Notes: generated by a model from the letters alone, not told the origin. A stretch of DNA of 64,000 nucleotides from Myxococcales bacterium (GCA_947445025.1 CANFCB010000002.1:18802-82801); one strand, 5' to 3'; shown: positions 6,494 through 52,342, counted from the stretch's first letter. Numbers and translations are program-made.

Positions 6494-7114
6494 ATGATGA
6501 CGGCCAGAGACTCGTTGCTGCATGAAATTCTGACTCTTACTAAGCGCCCCTATTCCAAACTTGCAAAAGCAAATATTGCTAAGGTGTTGACCGGTTACCG
6601 TATTCAGGCAAAGCCCAGCTTGGTTTTGCTAGAAAAAATGACGGCTCGCGAAACTTTGCAAGAAAAGGTTCTAGAAGCGTGGCAAATTTTAAACGCTTCT
6701 CGTCTGGAGTATGACATTAAAGAAGCCATCGACGACTATCGGATGCAATTTAAACAAAACACTAAAAATAAGAGCACCAAGGAAATGGGCTTAGTACAGG
6801 CGACTAGAAATGCTGCTAATGTAGACGGCAACGCTGGTCTTCCTAAAAAAAAGGCGGTGGTTATCTCTGTGAGCCATAGAAAAGACGGAGGTCCAATCGC
6901 GGGCGGTCCTAAAAAACGCCAATACGCTCGTAGTGAGTGCCCTAAGTGTCACAGCATGGGGGTGGTTTTGGCCCGGGCATCTTGTGGCGATGGATATTTT
7001 TCTTGTATTTATTGCGGCTTTCAAGCTTATCGAGGTAGATTAGATTCAGAGCTGGATCTGCCTTTAGCTGCAGAGCTTTTAGGGCGCCGCTTCGATGAAG
7101 AGAAGGAAGTCTAA
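6494..7114 (+). CDS. hypothetical protein with C-terminal Cys4 zinc-ribbon (CPKC...x17...CIYC)
   Basis: 206-aa ORF with an RBS-like aaggaga upstream. The N-terminal half is helical and the middle is basic and Gly-rich. The C-terminal segment reads CPKCHSMGVVLARASCGDGYFSCIYCGF. I recognised no family. Confidence 0.5.
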   Translation: MMTARDSLLHEILTLTKRPYSKLAKANIAKVLTGYRIQAKPSLVLLEKMTARETLQEKVLEAWQILNASRLEYDIKEAIDDYRMQFKQNTKNKSTKEMGLVQATRNAANVDGNAGLPKKKAVVISVSHRKDGGPIAGGPKKRQYARSECPKCHSMGVVLARASCGDGYFSCIYCGFQAYRGRLDSELDLPLAAELLGRRFDEEKEV

Positions 7115-7136
7115 GACATAGGATAGGTTTTTAAGG

Positions 7137-8780
7137 ATGCATGTATTTTCTAAGCAGTGTCGATTTTTTGGGATATTGCTTTTACTTTTTTTAAGTAATT
7201 GTAAGTGGACCGAGCAGCAAAATGTAAAAGGTCGCTTTGCCGTCGACAGCAAAGATGCCTTTGTTTTGCTTTTTAGCACGAATGTGCGTGGTTATATCGA
7301 GCCCTGCGGCTGCACCAGTGATCCTTTGGGCGGATTGGATCGATTGGCTTTTGTTGTACGCGAAGCACGTCAAGCGTTTCAAGACCGCCTGCTATTTGTA
7401 GATGGAGGGAATCTTTTTTTTGATTCTACTAAAAAGCAGGCTGAAGTTGATTTATGCCAGGATGAGGCTAAACTTAATATTTTGCTTGCAACTTATCAAA
7501 GCTTAAAAGTTGCAGGGACGCTGCCAGGACCTTTTGATGAGTCTCGTGGTGCGGCGTTCTATCATTCTTTTTTACAAAAGTATCAAATTCCTGTTTTGAA
7601 TGAAATGCCCAGGCCTGGACAAATTTTAGATCAATCCGGCGTCAAAATTGGGTTGATAGGGGTGAGTTCAAACATTGATTTCAGCAAGGAAGCGCAGCGG
7701 TTAAAAAATGAGGGAGCTCAGATCGTTGTGGTAGTGGCGCAGGCACATACGTCAAGTGTGCGGACTTGGTTTCAAGGTGTAACGGATGTTGACATCGTGA
7801 TTTTAGGGCAAGAGATGAGCGAGACACCAATGCCTGCAGAGTTGTTATCTGAGCAAGGACCCTGGTTGGTCTCTGCGGCAATGCAGGGTCAATATTTAGG
7901 TGTTGTTGAGTTTAGAAATATATCTCTTAAAAAGACCGGGCCTTGGCAGATAGATGACAGATTGCATAAAAATGAAATGCGTTCTCGTTTATTGCAAAAC
8001 CGCGCCCAATCTTTAAAAAAACAAATCAAAGATGCGGCGTTAGCAAGACGATCTTTTTTAGAAAAGCAACTGCGTAGTATCGAAACAGAATTAATTAACG
8101 AAAAAAAAATGCCAAGCAATCAGGTCGAAATACCAGGACCATTTTTCAAATTCAGAGCGATTGCGCTTCATAAAGAAATTACACCGTTGCCAGAAGTGCA
8201 AAAAAAACTATTGGCTTATGAGAAATCAATCCCCCATTTGGTTTCCAAGTGTGAAGCAAACACGAATTGCCAGCCTGTAAAACCTGGCGAGCCTACTTAT
8301 GTGGGTGTGCAAACTTGCAAAAATTGCCACCTCGCTGCTGTCAATGTTTGGGAAAATGCGGTAGTGGAAATGGCTGGCAAAAATGAAAAAGGTTTGCCTA
8401 TTAAACAAAGATCTGGGCACTCTTTAGCGTGGTCAACTTTGGAGAAAAAACATAAAGCGACTGATCGAAATTGCATCGGGTGTCACAGCATCGGTTTCAT
8501 GGAGCCTGGTGGTTATTGCAAAGTCAGCGAAATCGATTTTCGCAAAAATGTCCAATGCGAATCTTGCCATGGGCCAGGAAGTTTACACGCGTTAAGCGGT
8601 GATAAAAAATGGATTAAACGCGAGGTTCCCGAAAGTACCTGCCGCACTTGCCATCATGTGCCACATATTGAAACCACAGCAAGCTTTGTTTATGAGGATA
8701 AACTCAAATTGATTTTAGGCAAAGGCCATGGCGAAGCGTTGTTGATGCGTCTCAATCATGGTTCGGCAAAATCGCAATAA
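7137..8780 (+). CDS. secreted tetrahaem c-type cytochrome with an N-terminal degenerate 5'-nucleotidase/metallophosphoesterase-like domain
   Basis: Signal peptide/lipobox-like LLLLFLSNC. Four CxxCH motifs lie in the last ~150 aa (CKNCH, CIGCH, CESCH, CRTCH). The N-terminal LLFSTNVRGYIEPCGCTSDPLGGLDRLA...LLFVDGGNLFF resembles the 5'-NT fold, but the D/H metal ligands are not evident. Confidence 0.75.
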   Translation: MHVFSKQCRFFGILLLLFLSNCKWTEQQNVKGRFAVDSKDAFVLLFSTNVRGYIEPCGCTSDPLGGLDRLAFVVREARQAFQDRLLFVDGGNLFFDSTKKQAEVDLCQDEAKLNILLATYQSLKVAGTLPGPFDESRGAAFYHSFLQKYQIPVLNEMPRPGQILDQSGVKIGLIGVSSNIDFSKEAQRLKNEGAQIVVVVAQAHTSSVRTWFQGVTDVDIVILGQEMSETPMPAELLSEQGPWLVSAAMQGQYLGVVEFRNISLKKTGPWQIDDRLHKNEMRSRLLQNRAQSLKKQIKDAALARRSFLEKQLRSIETELINEKKMPSNQVEIPGPFFKFRAIALHKEITPLPEVQKKLLAYEKSIPHLVSKCEANTNCQPVKPGEPTYVGVQTCKNCHLAAVNVWENAVVEMAGKNEKGLPIKQRSGHSLAWSTLEKKHKATDRNCIGCHSIGFMEPGGYCKVSEIDFRKNVQCESCHGPGSLHALSGDKKWIKREVPESTCRTCHHVPHIETTASFVYEDKLKLILGKGHGEALLMRLNHGSAKSQ

Positions 8781-10206
8781 GCTGCCAGAGTAATTGAGGG
8801 AGCATTCCAGTAGCAATAAGCACTACTGCACATGAAAAAAGAAAAACAGTGTGCTTGGTCGGATGCAGGCTGCTAAATTCATAATGTGGCGATTTGGCAA
8901 ATAGAAAGACAGCTAATCTGGCGACGGGTGCAGTGCCAATGATGATGCTGAGAATCATGATAATCCCACTTAAAAAATATTGATTTAAAAATAAATTTTT
9001 TAATGCCGACATGCGAATATAAAATCCCAGTGTTCCCGGAACACCCACCAGCGAAGAAAGACTGATAAGCCAGGCCGTGATGATGAAAGGGTGTTTGCGG
9101 CCTGCGCCTGCATAATCTTCCCAGGTCATCTCTAAGTGTGCGGGGATTTTTAAAAAGTTTAGACCCAGAATAACACCGGGGATGGCAACAGCGACGTTGA
9201 CGAGAAACATGAAAAACATGAAGGGAGTGGCCTGGCTGAGATTCGCATTTGCGAGCGTTAATGTGAGCCATAATCCCGGCTGCAGCATGAATAAGTAGAC
9301 AGCCATGCGGGCAATGCGCCTTTGATCAATGGCCATGAATCCCGGAATTAGCATAGAAAGCATTGCAAAAAAACCAAGAAAATTCAAAAGTATCGGAGAA
9401 GCATTGCCTGCGATTTGATTGGCTTCAATCATGCGCAGTAAAATTATGCTGCCGGGGATAAAACTACCCATGGCAAATGCCGTAGATAGATAAGAAGAGG
9501 TTCCGTCAAGATAATCGATGTGAAACCAAAAAAATGGGGCAACGTCAAAAAAAGAGAGGACTAAAATCCAAATAAATGACCAAGCTATTTTGCCTAAAGT
9601 GGCATTCAAAGGATCGTTGATGGCGTTGGCAATTGAGGCAAATTGAGTTGAACCAGAGCAGAGGTAAGAAAAAGCAATTGCCGTGGCCATGCTTAAGAGT
9701 AAGAAACTCGCCTTTATGAAAATTTTGGCAGCTACCTCAGATCCCAATTGGTGGTAATTATCAAAAGCAGCAAGAGCCATCATGATCAAAGTCCACAGAC
9801 TGACACAAATAGTAAAATATAAAATATCTTTCAAGGTGCACATGACGATAACAAGTAAGAGCGCAACCAGGAGGAGCGCATACTTTTCGCCGCGTTCTTG
9901 ACGTAAATCACGTGATTGTAGCATGCTTAAAATTAAGCAGAAAAGCGCCATGAGGCAGGAAAAGAAAATAGCCCATTTGGCAGCTTGGTCGAAGGCAAAA
10001 ATTGGATTTGAAAAGGAGACTGGTGCGCTTAAGCTGTAAAGGGCAACGCCTGCAATTGATAAAAAAGTCAGCAATGCAATATGAGGTTTATTTCCTATTT
10101 TTTTAAAGCCTTCTTGGACGCCGGCACCCTCTAACAATAGGCATAAAACAGCACTTATTAGCAATGTTACCGATGTCACCAATAGTGGCGTTGGTACATT
10201 TAACAT
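8752..10206 (-). CDS. nuoN: NuoN-like antiporter-type membrane subunit (divergent, 484 aa)
   Basis: Polytopic protein and last gene of a J-K-L-M-N-ordered operon. GEKYALLL resembles the NuoN GEYYALLL motif and SEVAAKIFIKASF resembles SxEAAxKYFxxGAF. The TM7-8 motif PxHxWxPDxxEGxPTPxS is degenerate (APFFWFHIDYLDGTSSYLS). The start overlaps the upstream stop (TAATG at 10204-10208). Confidence 0.6.
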   Translation of the reverse strand: MLNVPTPLLVTSVTLLISAVLCLLLEGAGVQEGFKKIGNKPHIALLTFLSIAGVALYSLSAPVSFSNPIFAFDQAAKWAIFFSCLMALFCLILSMLQSRDLRQERGEKYALLLVALLLVIVMCTLKDILYFTICVSLWTLIMMALAAFDNYHQLGSEVAAKIFIKASFLLLSMATAIAFSYLCSGSTQFASIANAINDPLNATLGKIAWSFIWILVLSFFDVAPFFWFHIDYLDGTSSYLSTAFAMGSFIPGSIILLRMIEANQIAGNASPILLNFLGFFAMLSMLIPGFMAIDQRRIARMAVYLFMLQPGLWLTLTLANANLSQATPFMFFMFLVNVAVAIPGVILGLNFLKIPAHLEMTWEDYAGAGRKHPFIITAWLISLSSLVGVPGTLGFYIRMSALKNLFLNQYFLSGIIMILSIIIGTAPVARLAVFLFAKSPHYEFSSLHPTKHTVFLFSCAVVLIATGMLPQLLWQLIAILPNHD

Positions 10207-11591
10207 TAGGCACCTGTGTTTAAAAAGTAAGTTGAACTAACCAAGCATAAAAGTAAAACAACAGCGAAGGACGCCCAAGCATTTTGAAGAGAGGCGAGCT
10301 TGCGAGGCCTGTATCCTAGGAGTGATCTTCCAGTTGTTTGTGGATCAATGTGGCGAAAGTAATTTTGTATTAATGCGGTGATTAATAGTAAAAAGATGAT
10401 GAGCCAAAAACTGATGTTTAGAGCAGGAGAAAGCAGCGTTGATGAAAATAAATCCATATAACCAAGCCATAATGCAGTGCCTATTCCAAGGCCTGGCAAA
10501 GGAAACCAAAGTGCGAGGCTTGCCAGCCATAGATGATTAATTGTTGTGTCAATTAATTCGTGTTCCAGCTCCCAAAAAAGCAATTGTCCGACATAGAGCG
10601 TAAAAGAGGCGCAGATGACGGCACAGAAAAGCATTAAGATGGCAGCTCGAGAGGAGGCATCATGGTGGGGATCGAGGACAAAATTGATAAAAATAGCATT
10701 GTAAAAAACCAGCAGAGAAAGTCCAATTTGTCGGCAATCTTTTTCTGTAATTATCCACAAAGCACTAAAAAAGCTGCTGGCAAAAACCAAAATGGTAACC
10801 ACTGGGCTGCAAATAAATGCCGGCTGATAAAGATGCAGCGTATTTTTGATAGAAAATAGTAAGGCTGCGCCGGTCGGAATTATAAAAGCAACGTATAAAA
10901 TAATGATGGTAATGGAACTGTTTTCGAACATCGTGCGTGAGAATGGTGCAAAAAAAGGAATTAGAAGCCGTGTTAATGCGGGCGCTAATGCTATCCAATA
11001 AAGATAATAGCCAGCAACAAGCCAAACTGATTTGGGCAAAAATAAGACGGCAATTGAAAAAATATCAACTGTTAAAAAAAATAAACTGCTGACAAGAACA
11101 GCATTTCCTTTTTCAGAACCACCATGGCGAGCGCATAGAAAAAGAAATAAACATACACTTAAATTGGCTGTTATGATGGAAACGGCAAGAGTTGATGATA
11201 AAATGGTCAGTGTTGCTAAAGCGAGCAGCAATAAAATTATGACAGAGAAGGATAGTCCTTTATTTTCTGTGATACGTTTATTTAGAAAAAACAGACTAAA
11301 AAGGGCGAACCAAAGCGCTAATAATAAGACGAATTGAATTTGTCCTAAAGATAAATCGAGAACATTATCGTCAAGCCATAAAGAATAATTAAGCCGCCAG
11401 GTGAGCCGCTGTTCGCTTGAGAACAGGATGTGACCGCATTTTAGCAGAAAAGCGAGCCATACCGTTAAGACCGTTGTCGTAATTTGCCTCACAGATGTCA
11501 TGTCAAAATGTGGAATTCGTGAAACAAATATTGCTGAAAAAATAGGTATAATGACGAGTACAAGCAGCAGGTTATTGTCTGACATTGTCAT
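10206..11591 (-). CDS. nuoM: NuoM-like antiporter-type membrane subunit (divergent, 461 aa)
   Basis: Polytopic membrane protein at the M position of the operon. RHGGSEKGNAVLV occupies the place of the WGGxxRxYAAxKF motif. The central TM7-8 motif is degenerate (LLIPFFAPFSRTMFENSSITIIILYVAF). Confidence 0.5.
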   Translation of the reverse strand: MTMSDNNLLLVLVIIPIFSAIFVSRIPHFDMTSVRQITTTVLTVWLAFLLKCGHILFSSEQRLTWRLNYSLWLDDNVLDLSLGQIQFVLLLALWFALFSLFFLNKRITENKGLSFSVIILLLLALATLTILSSTLAVSIITANLSVCLFLFLCARHGGSEKGNAVLVSSLFFLTVDIFSIAVLFLPKSVWLVAGYYLYWIALAPALTRLLIPFFAPFSRTMFENSSITIIILYVAFIIPTGAALLFSIKNTLHLYQPAFICSPVVTILVFASSFFSALWIITEKDCRQIGLSLLVFYNAIFINFVLDPHHDASSRAAILMLFCAVICASFTLYVGQLLFWELEHELIDTTINHLWLASLALWFPLPGLGIGTALWLGYMDLFSSTLLSPALNISFWLIIFLLLITALIQNYFRHIDPQTTGRSLLGYRPRKLASLQNAWASFAVVLLLCLVSSTYFLNTGA

Positions 11592-11594
11592 ATT

Positions 11595-12785
11595 TTAAAT
11601 TCCTGCGTAGTAAATCAGTAATAGAGTTAAGGCCAGTAACACAACTGTAATTGCTTTTTGGGCGCCGCCGGCATTTAGTAATCTTAAAACGATTCGTACA
11701 AAGGCGGCAAGGATTTGTGGGATTTGTATCCACAAGATATAAATGGTTGGTGCAATAATCTCTCTGGTAAAATAGGCGAGGGAACTAGTTGTTTTTAAAT
11801 AGATTTTTTCCATTAAACTATCGACTCTCCAGCCAGATAGAATCAAAGACCTCCAGAGGGATTCCTCTTTTATTGGTGCATGGTTTTCCAGGGCTCTCCA
11901 ATTAAATAAAAATGGAAAAAACATGCATGTAACTAGCATAAATACTAAAGCAACATTGGAGTGGTTGGTTAAGGTGGCGATATAAAAAAGAGAGATCCAC
12001 AAAAACGCAAGATTGGTACGCAGAGATAAACTGTTTTGACGAAGAAAAACGCTGATAAGAGCGAACAAAGCTGAAAAAATATAAAGTATAGCAAAAATTA
12101 ATTTCAATTTTTCCGGAATTAAGAAAAATAAATTACTTTTGACGAAAAGAATGTAACTGCCAAAACCCATCGAAAAGAAATAAAAAGTGCGTGCGGCAGG
12201 AGAGATGAAATGCAGGTGAGATTGCAGTGAAGTTGTGAGTATTAAAGGAGATGTACGTATGAAAATACCGAGGAGAAATAAGGATGCGCATATGTCAATT
12301 GAGATATTCAGTCGCCAAGCAGTAATGCTAAATAGTAGCAGCAAGTCGCTTGAGCGATGCCATAACAGTATTGATGTCAAACTATCTGATTTATATGCTT
12401 GACTGCTAAAGAAAAAAGGAATGCTGGTGAGTAAGCCAGATAGAATAGTGAGAGTGACCGTCACGGTGATGTGATTTGAAAATAAAAGACTGATCAGACA
12501 AGCCTGTACCACTAAAAACAAGACCACGGCTTTATGAAAAATTTGCCTAGGGATAAAAAACAAAGTGATGCCACCGCCAAAGGCTAAGGCGACGCTTAAG
12601 TAGTTCCAAGGTGGCCAGTGACCACTTACACTTATTTGACTACATAAAATTAAATTAAGTAAACAAATAGAAACAATAAAAATTTTATTTTTAAAGGTTT
12701 TGAAAAGTCGAGTAGTGATGGGCGCTAAAGCAGCGGCGAGAAGATATAATCCAATCACTACCCATAGATTGACTGATGTTGTCAT
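11595..12785 (-). CDS. nuoL: shortened NuoL-like membrane subunit (396 aa) retaining a C-terminal lateral-helix/TM16-like end
   Basis: It sits between the K-like and M-like genes. ILLWHRSSDLLLLFSI resembles FIVNRIGDFGFLLGI. The C-terminal GWRVDSLMEKIYLKTTSSLAYF...LLNAGGAQKAITVVLLALTLLLIYY resembles the NuoL HL helix plus the last TM. It is about 200 aa shorter than typical NuoL. Confidence 0.5.
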   Translation of the reverse strand: MTTSVNLWVVIGLYLLAAALAPITTRLFKTFKNKIFIVSICLLNLILCSQISVSGHWPPWNYLSVALAFGGGITLFFIPRQIFHKAVVLFLVVQACLISLLFSNHITVTVTLTILSGLLTSIPFFFSSQAYKSDSLTSILLWHRSSDLLLLFSITAWRLNISIDICASLFLLGIFIRTSPLILTTSLQSHLHFISPAARTFYFFSMGFGSYILFVKSNLFFLIPEKLKLIFAILYIFSALFALISVFLRQNSLSLRTNLAFLWISLFYIATLTNHSNVALVFMLVTCMFFPFLFNWRALENHAPIKEESLWRSLILSGWRVDSLMEKIYLKTTSSLAYFTREIIAPTIYILWIQIPQILAAFVRIVLRLLNAGGAQKAITVVLLALTLLLIYYAGI

Positions 12786-12791
12786 AAGGGT

Positions 12792-13100
12792 TTAACCACG
12801 CAGCTGCCTCATTTCATCAATATTAAGAGTCCCTTGGTTGCGATAGATAAAAATAACCAGACCACCTGCAAGCATCGTTTGCAGTGAAAAAATAACGATT
12901 AAGATTAGAGCGAGCGAAATGGCTTTGATACCGCCATGCTCTGCAAAGCATGTGGCAAGGAAAAGAATTATTCCTAGAAATGCGACATGTAGGCATAAAG
13001 AAATGGCAAGTATGCTACGACGACACAACGCACCACAAATTCCTAAAATGACCAATGAGCCAGATAGCATTAATAAAAGATTTAGCGGCATTTGCTGCAC
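12792..13100 (-). CDS. nuoK: NuoK-like subunit (102 aa) with both conserved membrane glutamates substituted
   Basis: It aligns colinearly by eye to E. coli NuoK (RR after TM1; C-terminal NIDEMRQLRG versus NIDSVSEMRG). E36 aligns to His (SLCLHVA versus IGLEIM). E72 aligns to Gln (FSLQTML versus AAAEASI). Confidence 0.8.
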   Translation of the reverse strand: MQQMPLNLLLMLSGSLVILGICGALCRRSILAISLCLHVAFLGIILFLATCFAEHGGIKAISLALILIVIFSLQTMLAGGLVIFIYRNQGTLNIDEMRQLRG

Positions 13101-13157
13101 CTTACTTTAGGTTTCATTTTGTTTTACCTAAAAAGCAGAGTTAAAGTCCATCATTGT

Positions 13158-13661
13158 TTATGGCAAACTCCTGTTTTTATCTTGCCGAATGAGCAAGAGC
13201 GTACTGATGAAGATAAAAGGGCTCAAGGCAAGTAGCAGGAAAATAGCAAAAGCATATTCGGTTTGAAAAAGTTTCACGAGCATTTTGATGTCGATAGGCG
13301 TAGGACTGATTTTGAAAATATGGAAGGCAGGGATAATCATGGCGAGGTTCGCTGCTGCATAAAAAACCACAAGCACAAAAAAGAATTTGCCAGGCATTAG
13401 CCGTCTGGGGGATTTCTGGCTATTTTGCGAGCCCAGGAGAAAAAAGCTATGTAGCAAAACCAATGCGCTGGTAGTCCCTAAATGCCAAAATAACATGGCA
13501 CTTAAAATCTCTAATCCCATCATGTACAAAAGCCCGCAGACGCTAAAAATGACCATCAACAAAGATAAAATAGCATATAAAAAATTACGAAAAAATATCA
13601 CGCCCATGGCGCCGCTCAGTGTCAATGCGGTGAAAAGATACTGTAAAAGGTTTAAGTTCAT
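13158..13661 (-). CDS. nuoJ: NuoJ-like membrane subunit (divergent)
   Basis: Five-TM protein and first gene of the operon. NFLYAILSLLMVIFSVCGLLYMMGLEILSAMLF resembles NPVHALLYLIISLLAISGVFFSLGAxFxGALEIIVY. The likely start is ATG 13661; the ORF track extends to 13691. Confidence 0.6.
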   Translation of the reverse strand: MNLNLLQYLFTALTLSGAMGVIFFRNFLYAILSLLMVIFSVCGLLYMMGLEILSAMLFWHLGTTSALVLLHSFFLLGSQNSQKSPRRLMPGKFFFVLVVFYAAANLAMIIPAFHIFKISPTPIDIKMLVKLFQTEYAFAIFLLLALSPFIFISTLLLIRQDKNRSLP

Positions 13662-13727
13662 GTTAAGCCCCCTTTTCATGGTGAATATCATCGTACAGGA
13701 TACTTGAAAATCTTTAGAGGAAAAACA

Positions 13728-19461: not shown

Positions 19462-20655
19462 ATGTTTGGCATTTTAAAAAAAAATATCGAGACGAGCTGG
19501 GAAGATCATCGCCAAGCTCTATTAGCCGCTTTTTCTAAGATTATCGTTCCTGAATTTAACCAAGATGTGGTGAGTCTTGATTTGATTCGAAACATGGAAA
19601 TGAAAAATGGAAAATTGGTCGTCGAGTTGGTGTTGCCAACTTTCGCTTTGCGCTCTGAACGAGACTGCGCTTTAGCGGTTAAGAAAGCTGCCATTGAGCA
19701 ATCACCTCATTGCCCAGATGTGGAATTAAACGTCTATGCTGATGTCAAACCAGCAACTAGCAAAAGCATCTATCGGGAAAATGTTGCCGATGTCAAAAAC
19801 GTTATTTTAGTGGCTTCTGGTAAAGGTGGTGTGGGCAAAAGCACCATTGCTTCCAATTTGGCGGTGGCCTTGTCAGGTTTGGGTTGCCGGGTTGGTTTGC
19901 TTGATGCTGATGTGTATGGGCCTTCCATTCCTATAATGTTTGGGGTCGCACAAGATACAGAAGTGCAAGGCTTTTCCATAAAAGGCAGTGACGAAACTTT
20001 CATGATGCCGATTGAAAAACATGGAATCAAGCTGATGAGCATCGGATTTTTGGTCGATACCGCGTCGGCTATGATTTGGCGCGGCCCTATGATTGCGTCG
20101 GCATCCATGCAGATGTTTTTTAACGTGGCCTGGGGCGATTTAGATTATTTAATTGTTGATTTACCACCGGGAACAGGCGATGTGCAGCTGACAATTTCTC
20201 AACGTGTAGCCATTGCTGGCAGCGTGGTCGTCTCAACGCCGCAGGATGTGGCGTTAGCAGATGTGGTACGCGCCAAAGCCATGTTCGATAAAGTCAACAT
20301 TCCGACTTTGGGCGTTGTCGAGAACATGAGTTATTTTATTTGTGACGGATGTGATAAACGCCATGAAATCTTCACATCCGGCGGTGCCAGATTAGCTGCA
20401 GAAAAACTGTCGCTACCATTTTTAACTGAGATCCCCCTAGATCCATCTGTTCGCCAAGGAGCAGATGAGGGTACGCCATTATCTGCTAGTGCTGCAAATA
20501 AAAGCCCGGCCGGAAAAGCTTTTCAAGCCTTGGCTCATGAAGTAGCGACGAGATTAGCCTTGGCCGCGAAGAAGCCTCCTGTGCATGTGCCCACAAAACC
20601 AACTGCTGCAGCGCCCATCAAAAGCGTTAAAAAAGGTCTTACGGTTCTCTCGTAA
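19462..20655 (+). CDS. Mrp/ApbC/NBP35-family Fe-S cluster carrier ATPase with N-terminal DUF59-like domain
   Basis: Deviant Walker A ASGKGGVGKST, the CDGC motif in FICDGCDKRHEIF, and a basic Pro/Ala-rich C-terminal tail. Confidence 0.9.
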   Translation: MFGILKKNIETSWEDHRQALLAAFSKIIVPEFNQDVVSLDLIRNMEMKNGKLVVELVLPTFALRSERDCALAVKKAAIEQSPHCPDVELNVYADVKPATSKSIYRENVADVKNVILVASGKGGVGKSTIASNLAVALSGLGCRVGLLDADVYGPSIPIMFGVAQDTEVQGFSIKGSDETFMMPIEKHGIKLMSIGFLVDTASAMIWRGPMIASASMQMFFNVAWGDLDYLIVDLPPGTGDVQLTISQRVAIAGSVVVSTPQDVALADVVRAKAMFDKVNIPTLGVVENMSYFICDGCDKRHEIFTSGGARLAAEKLSLPFLTEIPLDPSVRQGADEGTPLSASAANKSPAGKAFQALAHEVATRLALAAKKPPVHVPTKPTAAAPIKSVKKGLTVLS

Positions 20656-31565: not shown

Positions 31566-32522
31566 GTGAACCAAATTAAGCTAGCGAATCTGATCTGGAC
31601 AATCGCTTTTGTTGTCCTGTTACCCATCTCGATTTTTGGACAACAATCGATCTTATTGCAGCCTGACGAGCAAGTCCAAATCATGCCCATGAATTTCCCC
31701 ACCGGTGCATCTTCAAGTTCTCCAGATGGCAGCGATTCATCTAGTGTTGCCCCGACTCCAGCCGTCACCGTCCCACTGCCTCCTTTTGTTCCTTTCACTC
31801 CGCTGCATAATTCTCAAAATGCTGTTAAAAATTTGTTGACGACGATTAAGCCTAGCCACAACGGTACTGCAATGGTTTTAAATTTAATTGTGATAGGCCC
31901 AACTCCACGTTTTGAAACGCACAGTCTACAAAATCCTGCGCGCTTAGTAATCGATTTATTCGGGGTGTCGATTAAAAAAACGCTTAAAAAATTGCAGCAT
32001 TTTAAACTTGGCACTATTCGTGTGGGCACGCATGCAGACAAAACCCGAGTTGTTGTAGATTTTATTAGCCAATCGACTCCCAACTACCGAATTTTGCCAT
32101 ACCAGCTTGGGCTTCAAATAAACCTTGGTTCTATAAGCTTAAGCCCTGCGTTATTTTTGTCTTCGAACGAGCGCGGTAATCCTCTTAGTCAATTGCCAGA
32201 TGTCGTTAAAAAACCAAAAAATCTAAAATCATTGCTGCCGCAGAAATTAATTTCGGTTGATTTTCGTGATGCCGATGTTCGCAATGTTCTACGTTTTATG
32301 GCAAAGGCAAATGGCCGCAATATTACTTTTGGAAATGATGTGACAGGGCAGGTGAGCATCCAGCTGAAAAACGTCCCGTGGACAGATGCGTTACACGCTA
32401 TTTTACAAGTTGCTAATCTAAACTACACGCAGTCAGGTGGAATTATTCGCGTATTTACCGCTGGTGCTTCTGATAAAGAGCGCGGTTTTAAATGCCAAGT
32501 TGTCTGCGATCAAGCCCACTAA
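31566..32522 (+). CDS. pilQ: PilQ N-terminal portion only (signal peptide, AMIN domain, N0/STN domain); secretin pore domain absent
   Basis: The AMIN-like segment is LNLIVIGPTPRFETHSLQNPARLVIDLFGV...IRVGTHADKTRVVVDF. The N0/STN-like segment is ISVDFRDADVRNVLRFMAKANGRNITFGNDVTGQVSIQLKNVPWTDALHAILQVANL. The ORF stops about 25 aa later, at 318 aa, whereas typical PilQ is 650-750 aa. efp starts 88 nt downstream. Confidence 0.7.
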   Translation: MNQIKLANLIWTIAFVVLLPISIFGQQSILLQPDEQVQIMPMNFPTGASSSSPDGSDSSSVAPTPAVTVPLPPFVPFTPLHNSQNAVKNLLTTIKPSHNGTAMVLNLIVIGPTPRFETHSLQNPARLVIDLFGVSIKKTLKKLQHFKLGTIRVGTHADKTRVVVDFISQSTPNYRILPYQLGLQINLGSISLSPALFLSSNERGNPLSQLPDVVKKPKNLKSLLPQKLISVDFRDADVRNVLRFMAKANGRNITFGNDVTGQVSIQLKNVPWTDALHAILQVANLNYTQSGGIIRVFTAGASDKERGFKCQVVCDQAH

Positions 32523-45042: not shown

Positions 45043-46106
45043 TTTGCTAAACTCAAATGAAGAGGGGGGTTATGGAAAATTTCCTGTGAAGGCGGCCCCA
45101 TACACGCCAAAGCAGTTTGTGCCTTGAGATCCATGACCAGGGCGCCGCAGGTTGCCACAGAGTGGCCAAGCTCTGGCTTAGGAGCAAGCGAGACATGGCC
45201 GAACAATTCGTACATATCGTTGCTTGAAGAAATTGGAGTATGGGGAAGTCGTTTTTCCAATTCCTGGTAGCGTGAATAGGTTGTAGAAGTTGATTTGACG
45301 GTGTGAGTTAATTGCATTTCCGCATCAAGGCAGTGATTGGTGTGAAAATGGGTTTTGTTACTTCCACGCTGGGTGATTTTCTTTTTGGTGCCGCTGGTTT
45401 CAATACCAAAAAAATCCTGTTTATCGGCGACGCAATAATGATGTCCTGACCCCAGTGACGCTTGTAAAATCAAATCGCAGCCTTGCTTAGCGCTGCTTTG
45501 TTTGAGAACTTTGCGTACCAGAGCAGGCCACACAATTCCAATTTTGGCATCGGTACTGTTAAGATTATTGATGCAAATGCCCACCGCATGATTATTCATG
45601 CCCGTCATGCCAAGGCAGCCAGCGATGCTGAAAAGCAGAATATCAGTTTCTCTGTTTCTTATTTTTAGTATCACAACATGGTCAATCGCTGAGCTGTCGA
45701 TATCCCATGTTTGTCCAAGCAAAGGGCCGCTTGCTGCTTTGCTATAAATAACCGAACAACCTTTGGCATCATCGCCGTCGCGGTGAAAATGGTTGGGACG
45801 TAAATCACGCAGATCAGTGTAATGGTTTAGTACAACAATCTCTTCAGGGCTAAGTCCGCTGCCTTCTGCTATACCCAATACTTCCAAGTATAGATCTTCG
45901 TCAAAGTCTTTCAAGATGGGCAGGTGGGCGCTGGCTATTTCTAAAACCTGCTTTTCAGAAGGAAAAGCCGCGTCTGTGCACATAAGCTCAAGGCGGATTT
46001 GTGCCATAGCGCGAACTTGATTGCGCAGGGTTTCTCCGTGAATTTGTCCGCAGCGTCGCGGATTGCTACTGTCTAATGCGAGTATAGGTGGTTTAGGATA
46101 TGGCAT
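45039..46106 (-). CDS. peptidase C45 / acyl-CoA:6-aminopenicillanic-acid acyltransferase-like Ntn hydrolase
   Basis: R(C)G..HGE is found near the N-terminus. The putative autoprocessing nucleophile is in DDAKGCSVIY. GQTWD and HTNHC motifs are present. An ATGA overlap links it to the downstream aminotransferase. Confidence 0.7.
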   Translation of the reverse strand: MPYPKPPILALDSSNPRRCGQIHGETLRNQVRAMAQIRLELMCTDAAFPSEKQVLEIASAHLPILKDFDEDLYLEVLGIAEGSGLSPEEIVVLNHYTDLRDLRPNHFHRDGDDAKGCSVIYSKAASGPLLGQTWDIDSSAIDHVVILKIRNRETDILLFSIAGCLGMTGMNNHAVGICINNLNSTDAKIGIVWPALVRKVLKQSSAKQGCDLILQASLGSGHHYCVADKQDFFGIETSGTKKKITQRGSNKTHFHTNHCLDAEMQLTHTVKSTSTTYSRYQELEKRLPHTPISSSNDMYELFGHVSLAPKPELGHSVATCGALVMDLKAQTALACMGPPSQEIFHNPPLHLSLAK

Positions 46107-49100
46107 GATTTAAAATCTCAAACCCGCGGTGCATTTCTTCTTTAGATACGTTAATGGCAGGACAGATAACAATACGATGGTTGCAGCCTAGGCCTAATTG
46201 TAAACCCGAAGCCGCGGCTTTTTTAATAACATGTTGGCATTGGTCTTGACTTTTCATGGTAAGTGTATGCCACAGTCCTTGACCGTGTCGAGGTAAAGGC
46301 CAATTGATTTGCCTAATCATATTTTCAAAATTAGTAGCATAGTTGGTTTTGAGGCATTCGTTAGCAACCAGTAAATGTTGATAGGTTCTCTTCATGGATA
46401 TTTCGTCGCCATCCCAGGTGGAAATCAAGGTGAGTGGTGTGGGGACGTAGTGCTGATGATCGACGAAGACGTGGCCTAGCTGAGCACCGGCATACCACCA
46501 AACCATGTTCGGTTTTACCAAGAGGCTGTCACTTTTAAAAATAGTTTTGCCACTTCTACCAAAAGCAGAAGCGGTCTCCACAAAAATAAGTGGCACAGAT
46601 GTTTCTTGTCGAATGGTATTTAGGCCATTTAAAAAATTATCGGAAACAAGGTACCCGCTTTTTTCTCCGATGAGTTCAATCACAATTCCTAAAATGCGAT
46701 CGCTCGAATAGCGCTTAATTTGGTTTCTAATTTCTGCTAAACTAGTGGCATCACTAGATTCAACCGGATGTTGAACTTTGGGCCAATCAAACCAGGTGAA
46801 GGGATTTTGATAATCACTTTCATCGCTGATACTTCTGGCTGCCGCAGTAGTGTGACCAACATATTGTCGTTTGAGTCCAATTACCACGTCACCAGCAGGC
46901 CTGCTAACTCTTAAAGATCTAAGACCTTTATCGACGACTTCGTCGCGACCAGATGTAAAGTAAGTATGCTGACAAGCTTTGGGCATGAGGCGTTTTAAGA
47001 GTTCAGCATAACGCACAAGGCTCGGGGTAACCCAATTAGAAAGTGTAAGTTTAGTGGCCACTGCCGATGTAAACATGCCATTTTCTATCGCTGCTTGTAT
47101 CTTTGGAGATTGCAGTCCTAAAGGCGCTTGAATAGAAGACGACCAGTCAATTACCTGCTTCGATATTGCCGCTAAGCTTTTAGCTAGAGCGCACCTAGGA
47201 TTTCTGAGGGGGATACGATAGTAAAGTGCCTTGCCGCCAGTATCGCCGTACTGATTCTGGTAAATAGCGACAGTATGTGCACCAAAAAATTGATTAATGC
47301 GGCTAATTTCTGGTGTAAAACCAACCCGATTACGGCCGGTCATAAAGTCGTATCTATAAGAGCCATCCACTTTTTTCATGGATCTCGCCAGATTTACCTG
47401 AGCTGATTTTAGCTTAAACCCAAAACCTTGTTTGCGTAATTCTTTACTGATAACTACGTTGGCAGAATAAAAAGTGTTATCAAGGCCGCGCATTTTGTCT
47501 TGCAAAGGACCATCTGTATGGCAGTGCTCAAGCGGTCCACCAATGGCGAAGCCTAAAATTTGCTTGCCATCAGGTGTTTTTTTAATCAGGATAAGACCAA
47601 GGCTGTCTTTTTGTGCAATAAATTCTTTTAAAAAACCCATGGAATCGCGACGTCCTAGCTCGTAAGTAGCATCTTCTAAATTTTTTATTTGATCTTGGTG
47701 CTCAGGCCAAGAATCCAAAGTCAAAACTTCAATGGCGAAGTCTTTTTCATCATGTCGTAAACTAAAAATCCCCCCACCACCTTTTTCTAAGGGGGAATTT
47801 GGCGGTGAGAGGGGGATCCAATCAGGAGCAACTTGGTCTGGGTTATTTTGTAAGAAGAGCAAGGCTTGTTTTAAGTTGTCGAAGAAGACGCTTAATTCTT
47901 TAGCAGTTGTCGACAAATTAAAACGAAAGCGCACTGTTTTTTCGCCGGCAATGTAAACCATAAAACCACGGTAGAAGCGCTGGTTGATGATTTGCATGGC
48001 AAGTGCGTGAGAGGGTAAATCAAAAGCAAAAGCATAGCCTTGATGACGGACATTAAGCACCAAATCGGGAAATTGTCTTGTTAAATCGAAAGTCTGCTTT
48101 TCAATTTCTAATTTTAAATTAGCCAAAAGCGCTTGTTGCTCCAGCATGGCTAGTCCTTGCAAGTATCCTCGAATAATTTGCACAACATGGGGCGCTGTAG
48201 GTCTTGAGTCTTTCCAGACCGATAAGCAAACACCAAGCTGCGCTTTTTTAGCTAGTGTGATGCAGTCGGGTCCGTCGAGGTTGCCGGCAGCATCGCGTAA
48301 TTGAAAATCGCTGTGGGCATAAAAAGGTCCGAGTAAACCAAATCCAGTTTGCACCTCGTCAAAGATGAGCGGCACTTTAAGGGCCCTTGTCAAAGCACGC
48401 AGACCATTAAAGAAACGCTTGCTTGCATAATTGTCGCCGCCTTCACACTGCATGGGCTCAATGATGACGGCGCAAATGTCGCCTTTTTGAATTTCGCTTT
48501 TTAGGCATTGCAAAGAATCAATTTCGGCTTGCAGTAAGGGGTCATGCGGCAAAGCTTGCGGACGTTCAGCTTTTGACCAGGCGGCAATCCATTCATAGGT
48601 AATCTCGGGTTCGTTTTCAAAATCACTTCGTTTGGGAAAAGGAATGAACGTCGCCTGGTAACCTATGAACTCAAACTGAGCGCGTTTTTGTGGATTGTAA
48701 GTTGCCTGCAAGGACATCAAGGTGCGACCATGAAAACTGCCCTCAAAAGCAATGATGCGCTTTCCTCCAGGTCCATTAAGCCTGCAAAGATCGAAGGCTT
48801 TTTCATTTGCTTCGGCGCCTGCCGAGGTAAAAGTTGCATGCTGTATGCTGGGACCTGCTTGTTGCAGCAAAAATTGCGAATATTTTTCTATCCATATTTT
48901 TGCCTCTGCGCTGTTTTCTGAATTGGCCAGTAAGCTTGCGGTTAAATCGCCTTCGGTGAGTGCCTTCAGATAGGGGTCTGCCTGAAAACCTAATCCCAGC
49001 GAGGCGATTTGGCTGGCGGCATCAAAAATAACCAACGGATCAGCATCGATGGAAGCAAGAAACGCTCCTTTGGAAATCCGCAAATCAATCACAGGTGTTT

Positions 49101-50907
49101 TCTTTTCCTTGGGAAGAAAATCGTCCTGATAAAGACGGCGCAGCATGGCTGTTGAGCGCGGAAATTTTTCAGAAGTTGGAATATTAATTTGAGCAGCAAA
49201 CGGTTTGATTAAAGAAACGAAACTGTCGTCATGTAACTTTTTTAAAAAAGCGCTCATATCGCGTAAAAAGACTTCAAGCTGGCTTTCTTCGGGAAGAGTG
49301 ATAACCGAATTCTTTTCACAAAATATCGACGCCCCACGAACGTCCTCGATGGGGATCTGGTAATTTTCCAGCATTTCCTCTAAAGCATGGCGCGCTACCA
49401 GTGTTGATAGCGAAATGTCGAGATTGTTTTTTTCTTTCTCAAGTAAATCTACCATGTTGGTAGGTACTTGAGTATGGCCGTATTCTAAATAGTTTACCGC
49501 GACCGGAAAAGTTGTGTAGCGAACCGCGTCGATGCCAGCCGCACGCTGGTTTCCGCTTTTACCCACACCGCCAAAGGGTTGTTCTCCATAGGCGCCATTG
49601 GTACTTCTATTCCAATTTAAAACACCGGAACGTGTTTGTTGATAATACCGCTCAAAGAAAGCCTTGTTTGCGGTAAAAACAGCATTGGATAAACCGTATG
49701 CGCTTTGGTTGGTTTTATTAATAGCCTCGTCAATGCCATCAATAATTTCAATGCATATGTCTGGGCCAAAGAGTTCGATGTCTAGGTATCCGGTGGCTGC
49801 TTGGCCTTTGCCTAAGTGTAGCGACGGCTCAACAAAAGCACCGCCACCCAGAAATTGACTTTTGACTAAAACTTCACAGCCGGAGCTTTCGGCATTTTTT
49901 AAGAGGCTGGTGAATCTGTCTTTGGCTGCTAGGCTTGCTAGTGGACCAAAAATAGTTTGAGCATTGGTTGGATCTCCAGGTTTTAAACTTTTAACAATTT
50001 TGACCAACGAATTAATAAAGCGATCAGCGACGGTTTTATCGACAAGGACACGACTGGTGGCTGTGCATCGTTGCCCCGTAGTCAAAAAGGCGCCTTGAGT
50101 AATTTCTGCCAGCGCTTGGTAGAGGTCGGCATCTTTTAAAACTACAGCAATGTTTTTACCGCCCATTTCCAGTGCTAACATTTTATGGGGTTCATCGAGG
50201 ATGGACTCGGCGAGCGCTCGACCGGTGGCATAACTTCCCGTAAATAAAATACCGCTAATCAAAGCATGCTTTGCTAGAGCTTTGCCTATATCGGCTTTGC
50301 CTTGGACTAGATTAAAAACACCGGCAGGAAAATTGGCTTCGTGAATACAGTCGGCATAGATTTCACCCACCCAAGGACAAATCTCGCTAAATTTAACCAC
50401 GACAGTATTGCCGGTAATTAGTGCCGGAATAACATGAGCATTGACGAGGTGTGCGGGAAAATTATAGGGGCCCAATACTGCCAAGACACCTTGCGCATGA
50501 TAGCGTGTTTCTCCCAGTATTCCTGCGGGTTTCTCGTTGCTCACACGCTTGATGCCGTGATTGGCCATGAGATCGATGCGCGCACTTAAATTTTTTGCTT
50601 CGCTTAAACTTTCACTTAAAACCTTCCCCATCTCGCTGGTAATGGCATGGGCCATTTGCTTTTCCTTTTGGACAAAAGCAGCTTTTAGACGCATCAGGCA
50701 GTTGAGGCGATCTGTCATGTCTAATGCGGACCAATGTGGCATGGCTTGGTGTGCAGATTTTACGGCGAGGTCGACATGAGCAAGTGCCGTTTTTGTTGTA
50801 AACACAGGCGAATAATCAGTAGCAGGATTAACACTGACAATTTCGCACTCGTCAGCATTCACAAACTGACCGTTAATAAAGTTGCCTTTTCCTCGATGAA
50901 TGGTCAT
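46093..50907 (-). CDS. 1604-aa four-domain fusion: AstD-like aldehyde dehydrogenase, class III aminotransferase, GNAT acyltransferase, degenerate class III aminotransferase-like domain
   Basis: aa 1-490 are colinear with succinylglutamate-semialdehyde dehydrogenase (GVLAVLGPYNFPAHL, LALEMGGKN, TTGQRCTATSR, GVLNWNR, PFGGVGKSGN). aa ~590-1010 form an aminotransferase (TSAGAEANEKA, GSFHGRT, IFDEVQTGFG, ITLAKKAQLG). aa ~1040-1195 form a GNAT (LRKQGFGFKL). aa ~1200-1604 resemble an aminotransferase but read IFVETASAFGRSGK and VWWYAGAQLG. Confidence 0.8.
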   Translation of the reverse strand: MTIHRGKGNFINGQFVNADECEIVSVNPATDYSPVFTTKTALAHVDLAVKSAHQAMPHWSALDMTDRLNCLMRLKAAFVQKEKQMAHAITSEMGKVLSESLSEAKNLSARIDLMANHGIKRVSNEKPAGILGETRYHAQGVLAVLGPYNFPAHLVNAHVIPALITGNTVVVKFSEICPWVGEIYADCIHEANFPAGVFNLVQGKADIGKALAKHALISGILFTGSYATGRALAESILDEPHKMLALEMGGKNIAVVLKDADLYQALAEITQGAFLTTGQRCTATSRVLVDKTVADRFINSLVKIVKSLKPGDPTNAQTIFGPLASLAAKDRFTSLLKNAESSGCEVLVKSQFLGGGAFVEPSLHLGKGQAATGYLDIELFGPDICIEIIDGIDEAINKTNQSAYGLSNAVFTANKAFFERYYQQTRSGVLNWNRSTNGAYGEQPFGGVGKSGNQRAAGIDAVRYTTFPVAVNYLEYGHTQVPTNMVDLLEKEKNNLDISLSTLVARHALEEMLENYQIPIEDVRGASIFCEKNSVITLPEESQLEVFLRDMSAFLKKLHDDSFVSLIKPFAAQINIPTSEKFPRSTAMLRRLYQDDFLPKEKKTPVIDLRISKGAFLASIDADPLVIFDAASQIASLGLGFQADPYLKALTEGDLTASLLANSENSAEAKIWIEKYSQFLLQQAGPSIQHATFTSAGAEANEKAFDLCRLNGPGGKRIIAFEGSFHGRTLMSLQATYNPQKRAQFEFIGYQATFIPFPKRSDFENEPEITYEWIAAWSKAERPQALPHDPLLQAEIDSLQCLKSEIQKGDICAVIIEPMQCEGGDNYASKRFFNGLRALTRALKVPLIFDEVQTGFGLLGPFYAHSDFQLRDAAGNLDGPDCITLAKKAQLGVCLSVWKDSRPTAPHVVQIIRGYLQGLAMLEQQALLANLKLEIEKQTFDLTRQFPDLVLNVRHQGYAFAFDLPSHALAMQIINQRFYRGFMVYIAGEKTVRFRFNLSTTAKELSVFFDNLKQALLFLQNNPDQVAPDWIPLSPPNSPLEKGGGGIFSLRHDEKDFAIEVLTLDSWPEHQDQIKNLEDATYELGRRDSMGFLKEFIAQKDSLGLILIKKTPDGKQILGFAIGGPLEHCHTDGPLQDKMRGLDNTFYSANVVISKELRKQGFGFKLKSAQVNLARSMKKVDGSYRYDFMTGRNRVGFTPEISRINQFFGAHTVAIYQNQYGDTGGKALYYRIPLRNPRCALAKSLAAISKQVIDWSSSIQAPLGLQSPKIQAAIENGMFTSAVATKLTLSNWVTPSLVRYAELLKRLMPKACQHTYFTSGRDEVVDKGLRSLRVSRPAGDVVIGLKRQYVGHTTAAARSISDESDYQNPFTWFDWPKVQHPVESSDATSLAEIRNQIKRYSSDRILGIVIELIGEKSGYLVSDNFLNGLNTIRQETSVPLIFVETASAFGRSGKTIFKSDSLLVKPNMVWWYAGAQLGHVFVDHQHYVPTPLTLISTWDGDEISMKRTYQHLLVANECLKTNYATNFENMIRQINWPLPRHGQGLWHTLTMKSQDQCQHVIKKAAASGLQLGLGCNHRIVICPAINVSKEEMHRGFEILNHAIS

Positions 50908-50930: not shown

Positions 50931-51971
50931 TTATTTGATCCATCTTGCCTTAATTTTGTTCGTGCTGTTATCTGAGGCTGTGCGTATTATCTCTTCGTTG
51001 ACCTTATTAAAATATTTATTATCAAAACTGGCGAATAAGAATGCGTAGTGCTCCCCGGCAAGCAAGGTGCTCAAGAGAATTGCCTGTGTTTCGTGGTGAT
51101 CTTTAATATAGTAACGTAGCAGTGCTTTATCGTAGACAATAGCGTATACTGTATCGTTTTCCAATTGAGAAAAGGCATTATCCATTGTATTCGCTAGGTA
51201 ATTGATTGTGTTAAAATCTTCATTGACTAAATCCGCGATGGCTTGATCCGCAACGACAACTTTTTTCCCATTTAACGACTGACCGATAAAGTTTTCCTGG
51301 GTGTTTTCTGTGTGTGTAAAAAAAGAGGTAAGGCTGGCAATAATCGATGCGTAAAGTAAACATCCAAACACCATCCATAGGCTGGCAACGATGCGCCCTT
51401 TCCAGTAAGCAGGAAATTTCATATAGCCATTGGTTGTCAATGTGGAAAGAGTAAACCAGATGCCTTCTGAAATGGCATCTTTAGGGTTAGCATGGAATTG
51501 TTCATTATTGGCTTTACGTTCAAAAGTCCAAATCAAAAATGCAGTCAGAAGAAAGAATAAAACTAAGATTATGGCGTAAAAAAAGAAATTTTTCCCAATA
51601 ATGTTCTTAACATGCTGCCAGTATGTGTGAGATTTTTGTAAGGTAGCAGCCCCCAGTTGCACGCGGTGATAAGGCTGGGTATAGGCAAAATTTTTGGCCA
51701 ACTCAGGCGTAACAGCAATCGGGCCAACTAGTAAGTCGACACTATGATCTTTGAGGGCTTGCAAAGCTTGCTCTAGACTGTCAAAATTCTTGAATTCGGT
51801 TTTTAGTTGCAGCCGTTCGGCAATGATGTTCCATAAACCGATGCTAAATCCGGTGACCTGGTTCTCTTTCCAGATTACATAAGGCGGATCGCCGATAGTC
51901 CCAACTTTTATTTGCTCTGAATTAGCGACAAAAGAAACAAATAAACATGAAAACAATAAAAAAAAGCGCAT
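50931..51971 (-). CDS. GluR0-like ligand-gated ion channel: periplasmic-binding-protein lobes interrupted by a 2-TM K-channel-like pore
   Basis: After the signal peptide, the S1 lobe is IKVGTIGDPPYV...DLLVGPIAVTPELAKNFAYTQPY. M1 is FFFYAIILVLFFLLTAFLIWTF. The pore is EGIWFTLSTLTTNGYMKF. M2 is IVASLWMVFGCLLYASIIASL. The S2 lobe is GKKVVVADQAIADLV...YAIVYDKALLRYY. The ORF track uses GTG 51986, which forms a GTGA overlap with the upstream stop. Confidence 0.75.
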   Translation of the reverse strand: MRFFLLFSCLFVSFVANSEQIKVGTIGDPPYVIWKENQVTGFSIGLWNIIAERLQLKTEFKNFDSLEQALQALKDHSVDLLVGPIAVTPELAKNFAYTQPYHRVQLGAATLQKSHTYWQHVKNIIGKNFFFYAIILVLFFLLTAFLIWTFERKANNEQFHANPKDAISEGIWFTLSTLTTNGYMKFPAYWKGRIVASLWMVFGCLLYASIIASLTSFFTHTENTQENFIGQSLNGKKVVVADQAIADLVNEDFNTINYLANTMDNAFSQLENDTVYAIVYDKALLRYYIKDHHETQAILLSTLLAGEHYAFLFASFDNKYFNKVNEEIIRTASDNSTNKIKARWIK

Positions 51972-51982
51972 CAAAATATCCC

Positions 51983-52342
51983 TCACCTAGCCGAAATGAG
52001 TTTTCCAAAGATGGAACTGACGATGCTGACCATTAAAGCACCTAAGAAAGTGGCCCAAAAGCCGTTCACGGTAAAACCAAATCCCATTTCATGGCCCAAA
52101 TAACCGGCAAACCAAAACATAATCATGTTGGCAATCAAAAGCCACAAACCAAGTGTTAGGAAAACAAAAGGAAAAGTGAAAAATTTAAAGATGGGACCGA
52201 TGACGGTGTTGACCAGGCCGGCAACAACGGCAATGAACACTATATCCCATCTGCTTTGAGCAGCAGTGGTAATTCCTGGAACCACGAGGATAGCGGCAAA
52301 AAAACCAGCAGCATTTACTAACCAACGCGCAAAAAATTTCAT
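51983..52342 (-). CDS. DUF360/YvlD-type (phage-holin-4-like) small membrane protein
   Basis: Four-TM pattern: LVNAAGFFAAILVVPGI..., VAGLVNTVIGPIFKFFTFPFVFLTLGLWLLIANMIMFWFAGYL. An RBS (ggag) lies 6 nt before ATG 52342. Confidence 0.65.
   Translation of the reverse strand: MKFFARWLVNAAGFFAAILVVPGITTAAQSRWDIVFIAVVAGLVNTVIGPIFKFFTFPFVFLTLGLWLLIANMIMFWFAGYLGHEMGFGFTVNGFWATFLGALMVSIVSSIFGKLISAR

Follow-up and report, generated by a model that had tools for sequence, protein, structure and literature searches.

A probably stand-alone cassette of NuoJ-, NuoK-, NuoL-, NuoM-, and NuoN-like genes in uncultured bacteria with a largely dismantled proton-translocation axis

We analyzed a stretch of 64,000 nucleotides from a Myxococcales bacterium (GCA_947445025.1, CANFCB010000002.1:18802-82801; the whole stretch is referred to here as the window), in which five minus-strand open reading frames (ORFs) of 177, 102, 396, 461, and 484 amino acids fill positions 8752 to 13691 in the order J-K-L-M-N of the complex I membrane arm. 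Our results indicate that the five products are true homologs of NuoJ, NuoK, NuoL, NuoM, and NuoN, and that the chain of titratable Glu and Lys residues through which protons pass in complex I, Mrp, and Mbh has not been kept in them, the canonical relay residues having been removed or exchanged for Arg. On comparative grounds, the cassette is a conserved and selected unit and belongs to a rare, old family known from uncultured bacteria. Complex I, Mrp, and Mbh-type machines are held to be defined by the Glu/Lys axis of NuoK, NuoL, NuoM, and NuoN, which is regarded as all but universal among them and whose mechanism is still debated. We consider the chances about even that the cassette encodes a nonpumping, repurposed complex I membrane arm, which would act either alone, as Mrp does, or with a partner other than the products of nuoA to nuoI. 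A search of the literature found no earlier description of such a module, in line with what an earlier note on this DNA had supposed.

The ORFs lie exactly where that note had placed five tightly packed genes. The NuoJ-like gene is assigned to positions 13158 to 13661 on the minus strand, as are all genes of the cassette, and encodes 167 amino acids from the ATG at 13661, compared with the mechanical ORF of 177 amino acids at 13158 to 13691; a Shine-Dalgarno sequence, GGGGG, is located 6 nucleotides 5' of this ATG, and the length of 167 amino acids agrees with the gene calls in L001 and L043. For the NuoK-like gene (12792 to 13091), the ATG at 13091, also preceded by a Shine-Dalgarno sequence, gives 99 amino acids, and the mechanical ORF (12792 to 13100; 102 amino acids) begins with the GTG at 13100. 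The truncated NuoL-like gene (11595 to 12785), the NuoM-like gene (10206 to 11591), and the NuoN-like gene (8752 to 10206) follow. Spacing is 57 to 66 bp between the J- and K-like genes, 6 bp between K and L, and 3 bp between L and M, and the M- and N-like genes overlap in an ATGA; because of the short gaps and this overlap, the five genes form an operon. A scan for promoters and terminators gave no signal beyond the shuffled expectation, and an Rfam scan of the window found no RNA family.

Three of the proteins were matched directly to their complex I counterparts. The NuoJ-like protein scores 28.3 bits against PF00499, under the curated cutoff of 33.2, and its five-sequence family profile (A7), when searched against PDB (177,635 sequences were covered in the PDB profile searches), matches NdhG/NuoJ chains only (6hum_G, 2.5e-9; 9g83_J, 1.4e-4). 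The NuoK-like protein exceeds the PF00420 cutoff (37.6 bits versus 26.1) over residues 9 to 102, and its profile matches NuoK, MbhG, and MbsG chains in PDB, the NuoK chains at 3.5e-8 to 2.4e-5. The NuoN-like protein scores 32.1 bits against PF00361, over the cutoff of 21.5, and 109 bits against the NuoN model TIGR01770, far under that model's cutoff of 332.6; the MrpD model gives 23.7 bits. With the NuoN-like profile (A1), PDB matches are limited to NuoN/ND2/MrpD chains and are led by the NuoN chains 8e9g_N (1.2e-24) and 3rko_N (5e-20), and hhalign places the family on a canonical NuoN alignment with a probability of 97.9%.

The NuoL- and NuoM-like proteins, which the earlier note had treated as recognizable from single sequences, could be identified only with family profiles. 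Neither single sequence matched anything in Pfam, NCBIfam, or PDB, and seven-sequence profiles of both likewise found nothing significant in PDB. Archaeal NuoL, NuoM, and NuoN hidden Markov models run on the NuoM-like family gave no matches, and hhalign comparisons of both proteins with the NuoN-like family and with canonical NuoL, NuoM, and NuoN alignments from Thermoplasmatales loci gave nothing significant, the alignment of the M-like with the N-like family scoring above 100 block-shuffled controls (z, ~4.4). An exhaustive HMMER search with the NuoM-like profile retrieved 36 representatives (E < 1e-3) among 1.84 billion proteins, which range from 171 to 486 amino acids and all lack the canonical residues. 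The profile of a 34-sequence alignment of these representatives (A8) matched NuoM/ND4/NdhD chains in PDB collinearly and over their full length (6tjv_D, 3.8e-9; 8e9g_M, 1.2e-8; 3rko_M from Escherichia coli, 6.6e-6), followed by the NdhB chain 6hum_B (3.8e-3); 7qhm_J (0.46) and the MrpD chain 7qru_D (0.6) were not significant. One family member, P0058, matches PF00361 by itself at 1.4e-9. AlphaFold2 (AF2) models were built from four sequences per family; with the low-confidence NuoM-like model (predicted local distance difference test [pLDDT], 44), the best 50 Foldseek matches were all complex I, NDH, or Mrp antiporter-like chains. For the NuoL-like protein, a 10-sequence profile (A9) gave a sole match, to E. 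coli NuoL (6.7e-4; query residues 102 to 307 against NuoL 125 to 351), which is weak but specific, and a Foldseek search with its AF2 model (pLDDT, 43) was not significant (best E value, 0.67). The whole cassette is therefore homologous to nuoJ to nuoN: the J-, K-, and N-like proteins were matched directly, the M-like protein by its family profile and the fold search, and the L-like protein by its family profile. The L- and M-like proteins rank among the most diverged homologs relative to the domain libraries searched.

The loss of axis residues was read from profile alignments to chains from E. coli, Mycobacterium smegmatis, and Thermosynechococcus elongatus, and it holds across the families and not in the window alone. 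Taken together, both NuoK glutamates, the Glu of transmembrane helix 5 (TM5) in the L-, M-, and N-like proteins, the TM8 Lys in the M- and N-like proteins, NuoM E407, and NuoL K342 are gone. In the NuoK-like protein, aligned to the M. smegmatis and Thermus thermophilus proteins, the position of E36 is occupied by His38 and that of E72 by Gln74 (numbered from the GTG at 13100), the same replacements that had been read by eye in the earlier note; across five lineages, the equivalents are H/H/H/Q/L and Q/Q/F/Q/I, respectively. By its profile matches, which span all three of its TMs, this protein belongs to NuoK/ND4L, yet it lacks the two membrane-embedded glutamates, which lie in TM2 (E36) and TM3 (E72) of the E. 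coli protein. In the NuoN-like protein, E. coli NuoN E133 (TM5), K217 (TM7), and K247 (TM8) correspond to S136, F219, and F249; K158 is retained as K161, and the TM12 Lys, K395, is represented by R398, an invariant Arg in the family. In the NuoM-like protein, with ~14 predicted helices, NuoM E144 (TM5), K265 (TM8), and E407 (TM12) correspond to N143, P239, and L376, and K234 of TM7 is represented by R208, which is Arg in 34/34 sequences. The 34-sequence family retains only five charged columns, namely, D30, K/R161, D176, R208, and R/K219, of which D176 is family specific and falls within the part around TM6 in which NuoL carries D178. In the NuoL-like protein, R144 and D147 align to NuoL R175 and D178, so that both residues are kept, and D147 is invariant; the E144 position is hydrophobic, the K342 position is Phe, and the K229 position is R177, an Arg found only in the clade of the window.

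The three degenerate stretches that had been quoted in place of the TM7-8 motif of the antiporter-like proteins do lie at the true TM7-8 positions of NuoN, NuoM, and NuoL, and realignment with profiles did not restore the key charged residues, most of which are lost. The claim that these residues are gone therefore stands as far as the axis is largely dismantled, and needs correction for NuoL R175/D178 and NuoN K158, which are kept, and for NuoM K234 and NuoN K395, which have become invariant Arg residues. The signatures of the antiporter-like fold are retained: besides the NuoL R175/D178 pair, the alignments preserve the TM7 prolines and the TM12 breaks of the M-like (PGxGxG) and N-like (GVPGTLGF) proteins.

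The residual charges raise the possibility that ion transport persists in the complex, which would be either Mrp-like or a uniporter or channel and would work through rewired polar residues, namely, His229 and Asp231 in the N-like protein, the Arg/Asp pairs, and polar residues of TM5. The preserved broken-helix signatures of TM7 and TM12 are consistent with this, as are the conserved charges in or near the membrane (D176 and R208 in M; R144 and D147 in L; K161, H229, and R398 in N). Mrp (Mnh/Sha/Pha; 6z16 and 7qru, both among the matches) is itself a free-standing membrane complex of NuoL/M/N-like and NuoK/J-like subunits that works without a redox arm, and MrpD chains were found among both the sequence and the fold matches of the cassette. 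The C-terminal motif of the K-like protein, YRxxGTLNIDExRQLRG, is nearest to the MbhG/MbsG/MrpC type, with its best matches to MbhG (2e-8) and MbsG (7e-8), a likeness to MBH and MBS (6cfw and 6u8y). Nevertheless, we consider a surviving transporter improbable. A continuous hydrophilic axis would need more than the five charged columns that 34 NuoM-like sequences retain, Arg does not shuttle protons, and the L-like protein is reduced to 199 to 200 amino acids in some lineages. The cassette differs from Mrp, a seven-gene set, in that it consists of five genes without equivalents of MrpB, MrpE, MrpF, or MrpG and without extra small membrane ORFs, in its affinity for Nuo-type models (109 versus 23.7 bits), and in the absence of the Lys/Glu/His chain that Mrp needs in MrpA and MrpD. 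It differs from MBH and MBS in that no hydrogenase or NuoB-, NuoD-, or NuoH-like genes are present, and, whereas MBH has one antiporter-like subunit, with an intact charged axis, the cassette has three, none of which retains it. In this axis, the defining feature of its relatives, the cassette resembles none of them. By descent, it groups with NuoJKLMN and not with Mrp or Mbh.

The NuoL-like protein has the length of 396 amino acids noted earlier, which is 217 fewer than in E. coli NuoL, and past the position of K342 it directly enters a C-terminal segment. TM12-15, and K399 with them, thus appear to have been deleted, and the protein is interpreted as consisting of TM1-11, an amphipathic helix, and the last TM. 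The C-terminal part (residues ~295 to 396; positions 11598 to 11903, minus strand) is predicted to form a long amphipathic helix and a terminal TM: residues 295 to 372 have low hydrophobicity and a hydrophobic moment of 0.27 to 0.63, and the low-confidence AF2 model contains a 51-residue helix (321 to 371) and then a terminal helix (375 to 394). The length of the protein varies from 199 to 421 amino acids among lineages, and every lineage, including those with L-like proteins of 199 to 200 amino acids, has kept the motif P...LRxx[HQN][NT]G with a hydrophobic helix after it. In the GC-rich locus L075, the motif contains the canonical QTG. The hhalign program sets this motif on LRKIQTG of canonical NuoL without significance (E value, 0.2), and a C-terminal profile matched no NuoL chain in PDB. 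Of the earlier description of a short L-like protein with a lateral-helix-like C terminus, the length is thus confirmed and the lateral helix is a prediction with no significant match; an equivalent of the lateral helix and TM16 anchor is plausible, not proven. The L-like proteins of ~200 amino acids, little more than a helix and an anchor, recall MbhI of MBH, a small subunit that has only a lateral helix and an anchor.

The earlier note had suggested a test of co-occurrence in related genomes, and the five-gene cassette does recur: it was found in at least six lineages, in which identity of the NuoN-like protein falls to ~27%. Scans of genome contigs and metagenomes yielded relatives of the cassette along with ordinary NuoN genes. 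The full J-K-L-M-N order is present in the window, in the metagenome-assembled genome "Myxococcales bacterium nzgw263" (L006; 71% identity to the window in the N-like protein), in contig JABDBI010000020.1 (L004/L007; 36%), and in metagenome contigs L002 (45%), L035/L036 (from the group L035-37; 31%), and L047 (27%). Parts of the cassette lie on the short contigs L044, L045, L074, and L075, with partial gene order in L045, L074, and L075, and in two more lineages represented by short contigs without flanks, the gene order is unchanged. Contig L004/L007 is labeled "Methanobacteriota archaeon"; it carries TamB, GatCAB, and a Ser/Thr kinase with the cassette, and it is bacterial and probably misbinned or mislabeled.

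Comparison with the 71%-identical L006 gave dN/dS ratios (NG86) of 0.12 for J, 0.07 for K, 0.17 for L, 0.22 for M, and 0.14 for N, and the neighboring gatA and cytochrome genes gave 0.08 and 0.11. The strains L001 and L043 are 99.98% identical and offer no usable polymorphism. Invariant, family-specific residues persist between lineages that are less than 30% identical, for example, TWEDYAGAGRKHP in the N-like protein. A functionless complex I remnant decaying on its way to loss would account for the massive loss of catalytic residues and for the length range of the L-like protein. It is extremely improbable, as every lineage has intact and closely spaced reading frames, the dN/dS ratios are 0.07 to 0.22, and family motifs are maintained below 30% identity. 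Pseudogenes are ruled out because of these ratios, the intact frames, and invariant motifs such as TWEDYAGAGRKHP. Of the earlier suggestion of a catalytically fossilized or repurposed membrane arm, the real homologs and the dismantled axis are borne out; the cassette is not decaying.

Upstream, the cassette is flanked by gatC-gatA, which diverges from it, and gatC is the upstream neighbor in five lineages. Downstream, a convergent gene encoding a UshA-like/c554 multiheme cytochrome overlaps the N-like gene tail to tail by 29 bp; its product (7137 to 8780, plus strand) is a UshA-like metallophosphoesterase fused to a c554-type multiheme domain (NF041198, 202 bits; PF13435). Just 5' of it on the same strand (6494 to 7114), a 206-amino-acid protein without a recognized family carries a C-terminal CxxC...CxxC, and both genes share synteny with the cassette in a total of four lineages. 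It is conceivable that the arm anchors a new redox system together with these two products, the periplasmic multiheme protein and the small Cys-rich protein (window 6494 to 8780), as the cytochrome gene is conserved tail to tail with the N-like gene in the window and in three other lineages (L006, L004, and L035/36). We consider such an anchoring role very unlikely. The cytochrome is on the opposite strand, and TamB and gatCA are equally syntenic, a pattern that resembles the inheritance of a gene order and not a functional link. It is not beside the cassette in L002 and L047, and because of its absence there and because no other gene downstream of N is common to all lineages, the cytochrome is an unlikely partner.

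The neighborhood contains no nuoA to nuoI. None lies next to the cassette in the window, no other nuo gene was found in the 64 kb or in the ~10 kb past each end on the parent contigs, and none stands beside it in any of the six lineages that include flanking sequence; the observation in the earlier note that the cassette is without adjacent nuoA-I and lies between a divergent gatC and a convergent cytochrome gene is therefore extended to further lineages with respect to nuoA-I. The likeness to the complex I P-module (E. coli 3rko/7nyh, T. thermophilus 4he8, and M. smegmatis 8e9g) is nonetheless extensive: the J-K-L-M-N order is identical, the J, K, M, and N proteins are collinear over their full length, the NuoL TM4-11 core with R175/D178 is present, the broken-helix motifs of TM7 and TM12 are there, and the L-like protein has its predicted C-terminal amphipathic helix and last TM. 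The differences are the lack of linked nuoA-I, the lost Glu and Lys residues, the apparent deletion of NuoL TM12-15, the Arg at the Lys positions of NuoM TM7 and NuoN TM12, and the invisibility of L and M to Pfam.

The cassette could instead supply the sole J-N genes for a full complex I whose nuoA-I, and possibly E-G, are located elsewhere, an enzyme that would oxidize NADH or another donor and reduce quinone while pumping little, nothing, or by another route. We regard this as rather unlikely, and as the main alternative. Split nuo clusters are common, the N-, K-, and J-like proteins are collinear with their complex I counterparts over their full length, the best match is NuoN and not MrpD (by the bit scores given above), the predicted C-terminal clamp of the L-like protein is typical of complex I, and the inspected sequence spans only ~84 kb of one genome. 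On the other hand, NuoK E36 and E72, which link the Q site to the antiporter-like subunits, have been replaced nonconservatively (H/Q/L and Q/F/I), and these positions of the K-like protein resemble a lipid- or protein-facing surface released from constraint. The lack of linked nuoA-I in six independent lineages also argues against a complete enzyme, and a 14-subunit complex that does not pump would be costly in comparison with NDH-2.

A repurposed arm would work as follows. The five proteins would assemble into a complex that resembles the membrane arm, in which the retained C-terminal helix of the L-like protein serves as a clamp, and the assembled complex would no longer perform redox-driven proton pumping. 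Fixed Arg-Asp pairs (R208 with D176 in M; R177 with D147 in L) may have replaced the switchable Glu-Lys pairs and may lock the fold, so that the complex would serve as a structural or docking platform, or as a passive conduit, instead of an energy-coupling pump. The fuller version of this proposal, in which the redox part was discarded, the J-K-L-M-N arm became independent, the proton path was filled in, the gating pairs became Arg-Asp bridges, and a new role was taken on, such as that of a structural platform, in protein docking, or in organizing the membrane, falls somewhat short of an even chance in our estimation. Several observations weigh against a repurposed, nonpumping arm. The ~84 kb covered represent one genome, and a set of nuoA-I elsewhere in it, whether divergent or canonical, would assign the cassette to an unusual complex I as its distal arm. 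The AF2 models are poor (pLDDT, 43 to 44), and assembly, lateral helix, and Arg-Asp pairing are to be read with that in mind. The conserved charged residues of the N-like protein include H229, D231, R258, and D294, and the TWEDYAGAGRKHP loop is invariant, which could support an ion path. Finally, dS values of 1.1 to 1.9 are near saturation, so the dN/dS ratios are approximate.

The window contains further features of interest. An Mrp/NUBPL-type iron-sulfur cluster carrier ATPase (19462 to 20655, plus strand; PF10609, 320 bits) is encoded at a distance of 6 kb from the cassette, with synteny also in L004. In eukaryotes, NUBPL/Ind1 acts in the assembly of complex I, but the bacterial protein is a general one, so no link to the cassette is drawn. 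A PilQ-like ORF of 318 amino acids (31566 to 32522, plus strand) with AMIN, STN, and N0 domains follows pilN-O-P; no secretin domain is present in the same ORF, which may be split or truncated. On the minus strand, positions 46093 to 50907 encode a 1,604-amino-acid protein that combines an aldehyde dehydrogenase domain with two class III aminotransferase stretches, an unusual fusion, and positions 50931 to 51986 encode a protein with SBP_bac_3 and Lig_chan domains that resembles a prokaryotic ionotropic-glutamate-receptor-like ligand-gated channel. A fusion of SulP permease, STAS, and beta-carbonic anhydrase lies at 54876 to 57134 (plus strand), and a second SulP/carbonic anhydrase set at ~58.9 to 61 kb (minus strand; see also L040 and L041) is split into several ORFs, with SulP in pieces of 124 and 341 amino acids. 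Because SulP is intact (487 amino acids) in the sister contig L040, its disruption seems to be recent; in both contigs, Pro_CA occurs as pieces of 92 and 130 amino acids.

If the cassette is indeed a nonpumping membrane arm, it would be the first case in which antiporter-like subunits are held by selection without the hydrophilic axis. It would then constitute a natural loss-of-function series, in which the axis is gone, the fold and the order of the subunits are kept, as the lateral clamp probably is, and purifying selection acts across deep divergence, and which would separate the structural from the catalytic features of the membrane arm. The L-like and M-like proteins add two families that current domain libraries do not see. 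The maintenance of such an arm suggests that it may have a function that is independent of pumping, and with the cassette it could be examined whether a living cell can maintain the distal module in the absence of the Q-module.

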